Assembly (NCBI GenBank): GCA_019058445.1
Contig: JAHPZA010000006.1
Coordinates: 1,212,220 to 1,276,219 of the forward strand
Length of the DNA stretch: 64,000 bases
Reading direction: 5' to 3'
Origin: Promethearchaeota archaeon
GTDB lineage: Archaea > Asgardarchaeota > Lokiarchaeia > Sigyniarchaeales > SOKP01
Below the pieces are notes generated by a model. The model was not told the DNA's origin and did not search any database. It worked only from the letters and a program-made list of their open reading frames with translations. Position 1 is the first letter of the stretch, and every line of letters starts with the position of its first letter. This document shows, piece by piece, positions 9,052 to 25,324 of this stretch. The position numbers and the translations under genes were made by a program.

Positions 9052-9648
9052 GTGCTTTTAAATTTGAAGTCAGGATATAAATTTGTAAAGGAAACGTTTG
9101 AAACTCACGAAAAAGGACATAATACCCCACATTGGTATCGTGGTATTGAATATAGAAAAGGTCATTCTATTGAACGAATTGAACGACCAACGAAAATTCA
9201 TCGGGCCAGATCTTTAGGCTACAAAGCAAAGCAAGGTTACACCTTAGTACGAGCAAGAATAAGAAAAGGCGGAATGCACAAAATCAGACCAAAGCGGGGG
9301 AGAAAACCCAGGGCTATGGGCGTTAAGAAATATACAACGGGAAAAAATCTTCAATGGATAGCAGAAGAGCGTGTTCAGAGGAAATTTCCAAACATGCAGG
9401 TTTTAAATTCTTACAAAGTGTATTCTGATGGAAGAAACTGGTATTATGAAGTTATTTTAGTTGATCCAAACCACCCTGTAATAAAATCTGATCCAAATAT
9501 ACATTGGATTACTGAATCTGCCCATAAAAAGCGAGTTACAAGGGGTCTGACTTCAGCTGGGAAAAAAGCCCGAGGCCTTTATAAGAAAGGGTGGGGTTCT
9601 GAAAAAAATCGGCCCTCCATTAGAGCGAACAAGGGTCGTGGAAAATAA
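9052..9648 (+). CDS. rpl15e: 50S ribosomal protein L15e
   Basis: RIERPT...ARSLGYKAKQG, IAEERV, YEVILVDPNHP, RGLTSAGKK. Confidence 0.97.
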   Translation: MLLNLKSGYKFVKETFETHEKGHNTPHWYRGIEYRKGHSIERIERPTKIHRARSLGYKAKQGYTLVRARIRKGGMHKIRPKRGRKPRAMGVKKYTTGKNLQWIAEERVQRKFPNMQVLNSYKVYSDGRNWYYEVILVDPNHPVIKSDPNIHWITESAHKKRVTRGLTSAGKKARGLYKKGWGSEKNRPSIRANKGRGK

Positions 9649-22920: not shown

Positions 22921-24321
22921 TTAAAATTGAGATTCATCTATATTTGGCATTTCGGGAGAGGCTAAAGCTTTCTCGATATCCTCAGCCGGTAGTTCATAGT
23001 CTTCTAAATCTCCAGTCATATATTCTTTATAAGCTAATAGATCAAAATAACCATGTCCACTGAAATTAAACAATATTACTTTCTTCTCATTGTTTTCTTT
23101 AGCTTTTAAAGCTTGATCAATCGTTTCTTTAACTGCATGAGCGGTCTCAGGGGCAGGAATTATTCCCTCACATTTAGCAAATCTAATTCCTGATGCTATC
23201 ACTTCAGTTTGATGGTGCATTGTTGCTGACATTACCTTATTATTGGTTAAAATTGAAACAATGGGAGCAATCCCATGATATCTTAATCCACCTGCATGTA
23301 TTGGGCTAGGAATGAAAGTGTGACCTAAAGTATGCATTTTTGCAATGGGACCTTTCATTGATGTATCCCCAAAATCCCATCGATACTGTCCTTTACAAAC
23401 ACTAGGACATGCTCTTGGTTCTACACCAATTATTTCCAAGTCTGGGAGAATTCCATGTAATTTATCTCTAGCAAAAGGAAGCATTAAACCTGCAAAGTTA
23501 GAACCGCCTCCCATGCAACCAATTACAATATCAGGTTTAACTCCTACTTTATTGAGTTGAATTTTTGCCTCTTGTCCTACAATTGTTTGATGTAATAAAA
23601 CAAAATTTACGACACTTCCAAGAGAATATCTTATTTTATCACTTCTCATGCTATGCTCAACAGCTTCTGAGATAGCAATTCCTAAACTACCAGGGTGCTC
23701 AGGATCTTTTTCGAAAAACATTTTTCCAGATTCTGTAAACCTAGAGGGACTTGCGTGAACTTCAGCATCGTAAGCTCGCATCAAAATCTTTCTACCTGGT
23801 TTTTGAATAAAACTTGCTCTGACCATGTAGACAGTACAATTTAGTCCAAATAAATTACATCCAAAAGAAAGTCCTGAACCCCATTGTCCAGCTCCTGTTT
23901 CTGTTACTAATTCTTCAAGTCCATCCCTCTTTGCATAATATGCTTGAGCTAAGGCAGTATTAGGTTTATGAGAGCCCGTTGGAGAATAGGATTCATTTTT
24001 ATAATAGATCTGTATATTATCTCCTTCAATTCCTAGCTCTTTCTCTAAACCTAATGCACGATGGAGTGGACTTGGTCTATATGTTTTTGCATAAATTTCC
24101 CTCAATTCATTAGGAATGGGTATTAGAGGCTCTTGAGATACTTCCTGCAAGACGCATTCTTTTGGAAATATTGCAAATGCCAGTTCTGGTGGTGCTGGTT
24201 TCCCATCCATTGGATTAACTAAGGGCGTCATAGGGGATGGTAAATCTGGTAATATATTTATCCATTCCTTTGGTACCTCATTGGGTTGTAATAATATCCT
24301 AGAATTAAAATAATCCACCAT
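22921..24321 (-). CDS. trpB2: TrpB2 (stand-alone tryptophan synthase beta-like PLP enzyme)
   Basis: PTGSHKPNTALAQAYY, TETGAGQWG, GGGSNFAG, IHAGGLRYHG, PAPETAHA, FSGHG. Confidence 0.95.
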   Translation of the reverse strand: MVDYFNSRILLQPNEVPKEWINILPDLPSPMTPLVNPMDGKPAPPELAFAIFPKECVLQEVSQEPLIPIPNELREIYAKTYRPSPLHRALGLEKELGIEGDNIQIYYKNESYSPTGSHKPNTALAQAYYAKRDGLEELVTETGAGQWGSGLSFGCNLFGLNCTVYMVRASFIQKPGRKILMRAYDAEVHASPSRFTESGKMFFEKDPEHPGSLGIAISEAVEHSMRSDKIRYSLGSVVNFVLLHQTIVGQEAKIQLNKVGVKPDIVIGCMGGGSNFAGLMLPFARDKLHGILPDLEIIGVEPRACPSVCKGQYRWDFGDTSMKGPIAKMHTLGHTFIPSPIHAGGLRYHGIAPIVSILTNNKVMSATMHHQTEVIASGIRFAKCEGIIPAPETAHAVKETIDQALKAKENNEKKVILFNFSGHGYFDLLAYKEYMTGDLEDYELPAEDIEKALASPEMPNIDESQF

Positions 24322-24485
24322 TTTAATTACCTTATCTTATTTTTTTAGCACATTTTTAATGTGTTTCATCTTAATTTTGGAAATCAAAATCAGTAATGCA
24401 CTATTAATATTTTTAGTAAAATTGTATAATCGAGAATTACTTTTAAAAGAAGAAAGATTTCATGGTTTAATCCAATGCAAAGGCG

Positions 24486-24542
24486 TTATCGCCAACGCCA
24501 AGGCCACTGCCAACGCCAAGCCCAATTATTTACAGTTGCCAT
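24486..24542 (-). CDS. Trp-rich leader peptide MATVNNWAWRWQWPWRWR (putative attenuator uORF of trpB2)
   Basis: ATG GCA ACT GTA AAT AAT TGG GCT TGG CGT TGG CAG TGG CCT TGG CGT TGG CGA TAA; six Trp codons; ends 164 nt before the trpB2 ATG. Confidence 0.85.
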   Translation of the reverse strand: MATVNNWAWRWQWPWRWR

Positions 24543-24628
24543 TATAGCTAAACCATATCATAGAAAATTATTAAGATGATTTATTTATCAAGGTTTAAAA
24601 AGTTAATTAATTTCTATCTCAAAACTAA

Positions 24629-25015
24629 TTATCGACCCTCAAAAATCTTATATAAATTTTTCGCCGCGATTCTCATTACTTTCACAGTTTTCATTAAAGT
24701 GTCAATCATCGTGCCAGCACATACAATAACTAACCTCCCTGCATTTGAAATAACAATATACCCATCCTGTGCTCGCACTATAATTTCACTTAAATCTTCT
24801 TGAAACAAACTCTGAATTGTTGACCGCCCTGTCATCAATAATGCAGATGCGAGCCCACAAAATTGATCACCATCAACATGATATTGTGGTAAAGCACTAA
24901 ACGCTATTTGATACCCCTCTTGTGAAACTAACGCTATCGCTTCAATATCAGCATTAGATGTGATAAACGTAATTTGTGGGCTGATCTTCTCAATATCAGA
25001 CTGATCTATTCCCAA
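24629..25015 (-). CDS. roadblock/LC7 domain protein (start may extend to ATC at 25033)
   Basis: IEAIALVSQEGYQIA, GLASALL, EIIVRAQDGYIVI. Confidence 0.9.
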   Translation of the reverse strand: MGIDQSDIEKISPQITFITSNADIEAIALVSQEGYQIAFSALPQYHVDGDQFCGLASALLMTGRSTIQSLFQEDLSEIIVRAQDGYIVISNAGRLVIVCAGTMIDTLMKTVKVMRIAAKNLYKIFEGR

Positions 25016-25324
25016 GTCACTTCCGAACTGGATGTTGTACCACCTTTTGACTAATTTTATCAGAGATATTATTTAAGTGAAAATTAAGTAACATTAGTTG
25101 TTATTAATATTATAAAATTTAATATTAAAAATCTTATTTATTTGATTTTGATTAATTCTCGCAAAAAATTTGAATCCCCTAGAAAAAAAGGAGTAAAGGT
25201 AATAACCTTAAATTTCTTTTAAATCTTACAAAGGTTTAAAATAAAAATCCATTTTTTTTATAGTAGTTAGCAAAAAGATATTTTGAAAATTGTTTAAAAT
25301 TTATAAGAAAATAAAGTATACTAA

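Follow-up and report, generated by a model that had tools for sequence, protein, structure and literature searches.

In bacteria, sensing of amino acids through a ribosome stalled on a leader peptide is textbook knowledge. The closest described counterpart of the locus reported here is the trpL leader of E. coli and Salmonella (RF00513). In that leader, a short ORF stands before the genes of tryptophan (Trp) biosynthesis, Trp codons lie near its stop, helices overlap, and a U-rich tract precedes the first gene. The same arrangement is found upstream of trpB2 in the Promethearchaeota archaeon studied here, and the proposed logic, in which the charging of tRNA-Trp is read through the speed of the ribosome, would be shared as well. 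The archaeal leader differs in carrying six alternating Trp codons, whereas trpL has two adjacent ones. A long-range stem encloses the ORF and buries its own start codon, and about 165 nt with a further conserved hairpin separate the ORF from the gene. Alternative hairpins define the trpL class, whereas no covarying terminator/antiterminator alternative was found here. The Rfam Trp_leader model RF00513 gave no match, and cmscan of positions 23800-25200 at E<=10 returned only two unrelated weak matches. The element thus appears to work like the bacterial trpL class yet falls outside Rfam Trp_leader.

The Bacillus protein TRAP (MtrB) binds (G/U)AG repeats in the trp leader, where triplets recur at a regular short spacing, as they do here. 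The TRAP leader holds 9-11 (G/U)AG repeats, whereas the archaeal triplet is UGG, occurs 1-6 times and sits in a conserved frame with start and stop. In TnaC of the E. coli tryptophanase operon, a leader peptide likewise lets the ribosome report Trp. Free Trp is sensed there (bioRxiv 10.1101/2021.03.31.437805) through a conserved peptide and a catabolic operon is induced, whereas only Trp is conserved in the present leaders and their targets are biosynthetic. Mycobacterial small ORFs with cysteine codons attenuate operon expression (bioRxiv 10.1101/834739). They too are cognate-codon-rich ORFs upstream of genes for that amino acid; they are, however, leaderless and bacterial, while a predicted 5' UTR joins a helix in the archaeal case. 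For archaea, one account of Trp control (PMC6737238) names DNA-binding proteins only, namely TrpY in Methanothermobacter and Tar in Thermococcus, and TrpY is reported to control trpB2, going by a title cited in PMC3729527. These proteins are repressors or activators at promoters, whereas the element described below is an RNA/ORF element in the transcript leader of the same pathway. Neither an archaeal Trp leader peptide nor leader-peptide attenuation in archaea was described in any paper returned by a full-text literature search; we accordingly know of no earlier report of a ribosome-based, attenuator-like sensor in this domain.

The leader ORF lies at 24542-24486 on the minus strand of the window, by which we mean the whole 64,000-nucleotide stretch analysed. 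It comprises 18 codons plus stop and encodes the peptide MATVNNWAWRWQWPWRWR. The start codon ATG (24542-24540) is followed by GCA ACT GTA AAT AAT, then by six TGG codons (24524-24492) interleaved with GCT, CGT, CAG, CCT, CGT and CGA, and finally by TAA (24488-24486). Codon reading therefore bears out the original prediction of a minus-strand upstream ORF with six TGG in Trp-X alternation. Its further descriptive claims hold as well. The stop lies 164 nt upstream of the ATG of the co-oriented trpB2, the ORF occupies a GC-rich island in AT-rich DNA (0.52 over 24460-24549 vs 0.17-0.30 in the flanks), and a TATA-like box, expected near 24595-24601, reads TTTTTAAA at 24601-24594 on the minus strand.

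The Trp richness had also been called unlikely by chance, and genome-wide counts agree. Trp accounts for 1.12% of residues in long ORFs of the source genome, so the probability of at least six Trp in 17 codons is 2e-8 per small ORF. Runs of six TGG with period 6 occur twice on both strands of the 4.6-Mb genome, against an expectation of 2e-5; the second run is a Gly-rich coding repeat. Among the 4054 upstream small ORFs of the genome, the leader ORF ranks 2nd for enrichment in a single residue, after an acidic tail resembling that of the ribosomal stalk. The codons between the Trp codons include minority ones, as CGT makes up 11% of Arg codons and CAG 21% of Gln codons. An origin by chance within a simple repeat of hexamers (plus strand, CGCCAA x5), or as part of an antisense 62-aa ORF at 24359-24547, would find some footing in the period-6 array of five hexamer copies that Tandem Repeats Finder reports at 24490-24519, and in the presence of the antisense ORF itself. 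Set against the probability just given and conservation in more than 100 genomes and several families, it is hardly credible. The antisense ORF is moreover not conserved, reading 6-100 aa in different frames in 14 relatives.

A four-TGG run elsewhere in the genome (contig C4) was rejected as a candidate, being off-frame within a coding gene. Leader ORFs rich in other amino acids were sought in the source genome, and no attenuator was found among them. The best other candidates, a Met-rich and a His-rich small ORF, precede a Pfam-less ORF and an enoyl-CoA hydratase, respectively, and hence are not attenuators. The Met-rich ORF, MLKLIRTMMMIMMIHMIRDQKSIL, lies outside the window (G000:C4, ~452421-452495, plus strand), either upstream of a 303-aa Pfam-less ORF or overlapping its possible TTG start, with no visible link to methionine metabolism.

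The gene downstream of the leader occupies 22921-24321 on the minus strand and encodes a TrpB-like PLP enzyme of 466 aa (Pfam PALP). It scores 638 bits with NF009057 (cut-off 366) and 589 bits with TIGR01415 (cut-off 519), and 140 bits with the trpB model TIGR00263, well under the cut-off of 392. By these profile scores, the gene is trpB2 and not trpB1. It is also the only TrpB-type match in the genome. A search for contigs that encode an identical TrpB2 returned no record. Neither trpA, trpC (IGPS), trpE nor trpB1 was found in the 92.6%-complete assembly, while searches with the three Pfam families were positive in all 14 control genomes; this leaves TrpB2 as the only Trp-forming enzyme detected. 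A role in making Trp from indole would fit this gene content, and the source organism seems to depend on indole or external Trp. The original prediction had assigned this TrpB2 a part in Trp supply, and the missing pathway genes lend that assignment support at the level of gene content. TrpB2 would thereby gain a physiological label, as a Trp-supply gene where the rest of the pathway is absent, which fits indole salvage. Among 20 members of the family, trpA is absent in 10 of the 14 whose trpB2 has a leader and present in 5 of the 6 without one, a contrast that is descriptive only, given that related genomes are not independent. In those five trpA-bearing members, the trp operon has a leader instead.

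Comparison of the trpB2 loci of 40 relatives places the element in a wider context. Within the family of the window (f1), 14 of 20 loci have a small ORF of the W-x-W-x-W type whose end lies 136-183 nt before trpB2, and sister families of the order show a shorter W-x-W with a close in-frame stop before the same gene. A covariance model, R1, was built from the last Trp codons, the hairpin P2 described below and the arm that follows; the leader ORF of the window matches it with 86.6 bits (E 9e-19). Of 131 genomes sampled from the family, 102 contain the element according to R1; a single match is usual, some genomes have two or three, with almost no matches at the same stringency in other families of the order. 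The first gene after these matches, always on the same strand, is trpB2, trpD, trpA or trpE. The assignments of trpD (TIGR01245, 412 bits) and trpA (PF00290, 270 bits) follow from single models. That of trpE draws on TIGR01820/TIGR00564 at ~430 bits, under the curated cut-offs of 512 and 518, plus Pfam Chorismate_bind and Anth_synt_I_N. Weak R1 matches (E>1e-4) fall within or beside unrelated genes and were taken as false. R1 also weakly matches a small ORF of TGGCGG repeats, MESAFKWRWRWRWWWRSYLL, on the 2.4-kb contig G106:C349 (550-617), followed by a T11 run and located 327 nt upstream of a 165-aa Pfam-less ORF; it may or may not be related to the trp leaders.

Trp operons located through their trpA genes also carry Trp-rich leaders, just before trpD, as in MFRKNLNLKVPSSTWFWVWCWHA, and such a leader precedes the operon in 12 of 13 genomes examined. 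This leader type has U-rich codons between the Trp codons and a different hairpin sequence; its Trp codons are kept, as is the placing of the stop within the hairpin. The operon leader of one genome (G006, ~9390-9460) reads MIRKNLIVPSSTWFCICCWHA and has Cys codons (TGT) where the leaders of its neighbours have Trp (TGG), so this sensor may be in decay or may have been retuned. In the window, the leader promoter is immediately preceded by a Roadblock/LC7-domain gene (24629-25015, minus strand). It takes the same place in many relatives though not in all, and the leader therefore travels with the trp gene and not with the Roadblock/LC7 gene. A scan of metagenome contigs for the 17-base core of the leader gave about as many matches as expected by chance, on a rough estimate of the size of the collection.

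Beyond the order, the 500 nt upstream of trpB2 were scanned for W-x-W in 40 genomes of 14 other families of the phylum. Two of these families have leaders of their own. In family f5, both genomes (1.3-1.4 Mb) contain a 46-codon ORF ending in FWAWRWL(L/T)WP; a GUGGC/GCCAC hairpin carries the stop in its loop. In family f9, all nine genomes contain an ORF of 16-20 codons, M.R.CLGQW..GP.GPV, whose one or two Trp codons are closely followed by a GGGUCC/GGACCC hairpin. The f9 leader stop lies 158-195 nt before trpB2, a TATA-like box stands ~50 nt before the leader start, and GAGGUG or GGUGA occurs 4-13 nt before the start codon in six of the nine. The scan found no W-x-W leader in the other 12 families, a result that applies to W-x-W leaders, as leaders with a single Trp would escape it.

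The reading frame of these leaders was examined in 31 leaders from different genera and families, 22 before trpB2 and 9 before trp operons, with the two other frames of each leader serving as controls (62 frames). The last TGG is separated from a stop by 0-4 codons in 30 of 31 Trp frames (31 of 31 when one TGG run is re-picked) vs 4 of 62 control frames. An in-frame ATG without an intervening stop is present in 28 of 31 and 5 of 62, respectively. On these counts, the start, frame and stop of the leader are under selection as an ORF. No clear Shine-Dalgarno (SD) motif was seen before the leaders of the window's own family.

The recurrence of Trp codons in related genomes, on which the original prediction turned, is strong and extends to leaders ahead of four kinds of trp genes. 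Each leader holds 3-6 Trp codons in family f1 and 1-4 in more distant families. The six UGG codons of the window correspond to positions at which TGG is invariant or nearly so across 44 distinct family members, while the codons between them vary. Across leader types, Trp and the position of the stop are the sole shared features: in each of the types ..WFWVWCWHA (before trpD), ..FWAWRWLLWP (f5) and M.R.CLGQW..GP.GPV (f9), a hairpin bearing the in-frame stop follows closely on the Trp codon or codons. Within the family, on the other hand, the core TGGCAGTGGCCTTGGCG is kept even at third codon positions, so a constraint at the RNA level acts besides codon selection.

These patterns bear on two explanations that dispense with the ribosome as a cis-acting reader. 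The first is a Trp/Arg-rich micropeptide acting in trans, with the link to trp genes secondary or with a second role like that of peTrpL in Sinorhizobium. The peptide core W-x-W-Q-W-P-W-R is indeed highly uniform within the family, and bacterial leader peptides with trans functions exist (PMC7298713). The uniformity of the core nevertheless includes synonymous sites, pointing to a constraint on RNA; different leader types have only Trp and the stop position in common; and in every case a co-oriented trp gene comes directly after the element. We therefore consider a trans-acting peptide very improbable.

The second explanation sees the element as a structured RNA, or as a set of UGG repeats that binds a factor acting in trans, TRAP-like or another Trp-responsive RNA binder, with the open frame as a by-product. 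UGG triplets at three-base spacing recall the (G/U)AG repeats of TRAP, nucleotide conservation reaches synonymous positions, and the codons between the Trp codons are mostly C-initial, which yields a UGGC repeat. Start, frame and nearby stop are, however, conserved far above the control frames. The ORF architecture persists in leader types whose intervening codons are U-rich or that have only one or two UGG, and SD-like motifs precede the f9 leader starts. A search of the source genome for a TRAP homologue (PF02081) was negative, with a positive B. subtilis control. Because of the ORF statistics, the single-Trp leader types and the missing TRAP homologue, a UGG-binding factor that acts independently of translation is improbable, if slightly less so than the micropeptide. 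A leader that the ribosome reads is the reading we retain.

The RNA anatomy of the leader was resolved around this ORF. RNAalifold on MAFFT alignments gave near-empty structures because the arms shift position and the stems are AU-rich, and it was replaced by duplex tests of cognate vs non-cognate arms and by pair counts on named structures. The TATA-like box lies ~55 nt upstream of the leader ATG, placing the predicted transcript start near 24572. Across 54 leaders, TATA-like motif density peaks only at this distance (0.79 per sequence), a signal weakened by the AT-rich DNA, and no comparable peak occurs between leader and gene.

Two helices frame the ORF. The 5' arm of P1 (24535-24558, minus strand) runs from the 5' UTR through the leader start codon into the codons after it, and its 3' arm (24461-24480) consists of UUGC and then AUUGGAUUAAACCAU; both were assigned from minimum free energy (MFE) folds and the cognate pairing test. 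Cognate P1 arms pair at -14.6 kcal/mol and non-cognate ones at -9.4 kcal/mol, a result equalled by 0 of 20000 permutations, and the test with 51 leaders likewise gives p<0.0002. Hairpin P2 (24482-24499, minus strand), identified from MFE folds and pair counts, joins the last Trp codons (GGCGUUG) to a 3' arm that contains the stop (UAACGCC). Among 58 distinct sequences, 92.7% of P2 cells are paired vs 25-67% when the partner is slid, and the compensatory changes plus 18 G.U pairs fit RNA of the minus strand. In MFE folds, the first codons additionally pair with the CAG-UGG-CC core. This middle pairing lies beyond the reach of covariation because the core is invariant; it may explain the conservation of the core at synonymous sites as well as the minority codons CGT and CAG.

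Downstream of P1 lies a pyrimidine- and U-rich tract, UCUUUCUUCUUUU (24445-24457, minus strand), which is the candidate attenuation site. T-run density in 54 leaders peaks at +30 to +60 after the leader stop, at 1.35-1.54 per 10 nt vs ~0.1-0.6 elsewhere, and A-runs are depleted there. The tract of the window itself is weak, with a longest run of U4, compared with U7 in close relatives, and its distance to P1 in relatives ranges from 0 to ~35 nt. The tract and the next ~35 nt pair cognate-specifically to form a variable hairpin, P3, after which many relatives have a second U run.

A long hairpin, module B (24361-24401, minus strand; 41 nt), follows with an apical stem UUG/CAA, a loop AUUUC and a basal stem GUGCAUUA / UAAUGA-A-CAC. 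In 42 sequences, 85.5% of its cells are paired, a level reached by 0 of 500 shuffles, with slid controls at 28-50%. It shows 27 G.U vs 11 A.C combinations, an excess that favours RNA of the minus strand over a DNA palindrome. Module B has no Rfam match. Its own model, R2, matches once per genome and in trp leaders only. The small hairpin P5 (CACAU..AUGUG; 24349-24363, minus strand) shares CAC with the base of module B. By eye, it has the compensatory variants CACC/GGUG and ACAAC/GUUGU, and it is absent from some relatives. The 3' half of module B also pairs cognate-specifically with the segment before the SD. The leader ends in an A-rich tract (24322-24347, minus strand) containing an SD-like GGU (24331-24329), 8 nt before the trpB2 ATG; A-run density in the 54 leaders peaks at +130 to +160 after the leader stop.

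From this anatomy we infer translation of the ORF, ribosome stalling, co-transcription with trpB2 and fold-dependent termination at the U tract. The transcript would begin ~25-30 nt ahead of the leader ATG, and its 18 leader codons would be translated. With charged tRNA-Trp scarce, the ribosome would dwell on the six UGG codons. P2 takes its 5' half, and the P1 domain its core, from these codons, so their occupation would keep the domain open, and expression would run into trpB2. With Trp plentiful, the ribosome would reach the stop inside P2 and depart, whereupon the P1/P2 domain would fold and bury the leader start codon. The closed domain would then favour polymerase release within the U-rich zone, 30-60 nt further on. 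That the element is a Trp sensor read by the ribosome is highly probable on the comparative record. The more specific account, in which the mini-ORF is a cis-acting sensor that works by ribosome stalling in the trpB2 5' leader, is the best explanation overall and a probable one. The translation-coupled Trp sensor of the original prediction thus gains support as a candidate from the conserved start, frame and stop, the covarying helices over the ORF and the TATA-like signal upstream. Should the element work as proposed, Asgard archaea control genes via translation of the nascent transcript, and both coupling and oligo-U termination become testable with a compact natural cassette of 220 nt.

The output of the sensor is a separate matter. 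Termination of transcription at the U tract is a tentative assignment that falls just short of an even chance. The archaeal polymerase ends transcription at oligo-U and is not known to need a hairpin. Some close relatives (L004-L006) lack the ORF and the 5' arm of P1 and retain the U tract together with module B; this speaks against the proposed account in itself, yet would fit it if the tract is a poor terminator alone. A covarying terminator/antiterminator alternative was sought by pairing 11 leader segments all against all (55 segment pairs), a map from which short or invariant pairings could escape, and none emerged. Cognate-specific pairing is confined to the nested or serial helices P1, P2, P3, module B and P5, and the sole mutually exclusive overlap comprises the 3 nt between module B and P5. 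When the Trp codons are masked in silico, P1 remains intact in most MFE folds, which, like the missing alternative, speaks against the proposed account.

The main rival to termination keeps the same UGG-stalling sensor and moves its output to mRNA stability, to processing or to trpB2 translation, acting through P3, module B, P5 and the A-rich tract. Module B is as conserved as the leader, is specific to trp leaders, and survives where the ORF has been lost (L004, L006). The three-nucleotide overlap at its base would offer a small mutually exclusive choice with P5. Family f9 supplies two further points, as its pyrimidine tracts are CU-mixed and not pure U, and the 5' end of its leader pairs cognate-specifically with the segment just before the trpB2 SD (-18.9 vs -14.8 kcal/mol, p=0.003). 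Attenuation of operon expression by the mycobacterial cysteine-codon ORFs (bioRxiv 10.1101/834739) provides a precedent. In the window's family, however, the corresponding pairings lack cognate specificity. A closing helix from the 5' UTR to the pre-SD segment, supported in f9, finds no support there (p=0.14), and sequestration of the trpB2 SD by the U tract is equally non-specific (p=0.55), with a duplex in the window of -6.1 kcal/mol that is no better than shuffled sequences. The SD moreover lies at least 130 nt from the ORF. We regard a post-transcriptional output as rather unlikely.

A broader reading of the stalling sensor concerns its age. Leader-peptide sensing of tRNA-Trp charging could be an old, Asgard-wide device, represented by the Loki-type, f9 and f5 leaders and operating with a eukaryote-like RNA polymerase. 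A lead ribosome coupled to transcription would decide the 5' fold behind the polymerase, and the fold would trigger release at oligo-U. We hold this scenario to be doubtful at present, if possible. Were it true, it would represent structure-assisted oligo-U termination, of a kind debated for RNA polymerase III, and would show by direct genetic evidence that transcription and translation are coupled for regulation in the prokaryotes most closely related to eukaryotes.

Two minor observations concern leaders outside the window's family. The upstream regions of trpB2 in f9 (L111-L124) contain 2-4 TGTACA/GTACA boxes close to the TATA-like box on its upstream side, at a distance of 70-110 nt ahead of the leader start. 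TGTACA is the TRP box that TrpY binds in Methanothermobacter, and the f9 lineage may hence combine a repressor operator with a leader peptide. Control of the trp genes in E. coli likewise consists of a repressor operator plus a leader peptide. In the GC-richer family f4, one leader (L023, genome G033) has an 8-bp GC-rich hairpin followed immediately by U6, ~100 nt after its W-A-W leader and before trpB2, which resembles a bacterial intrinsic terminator.
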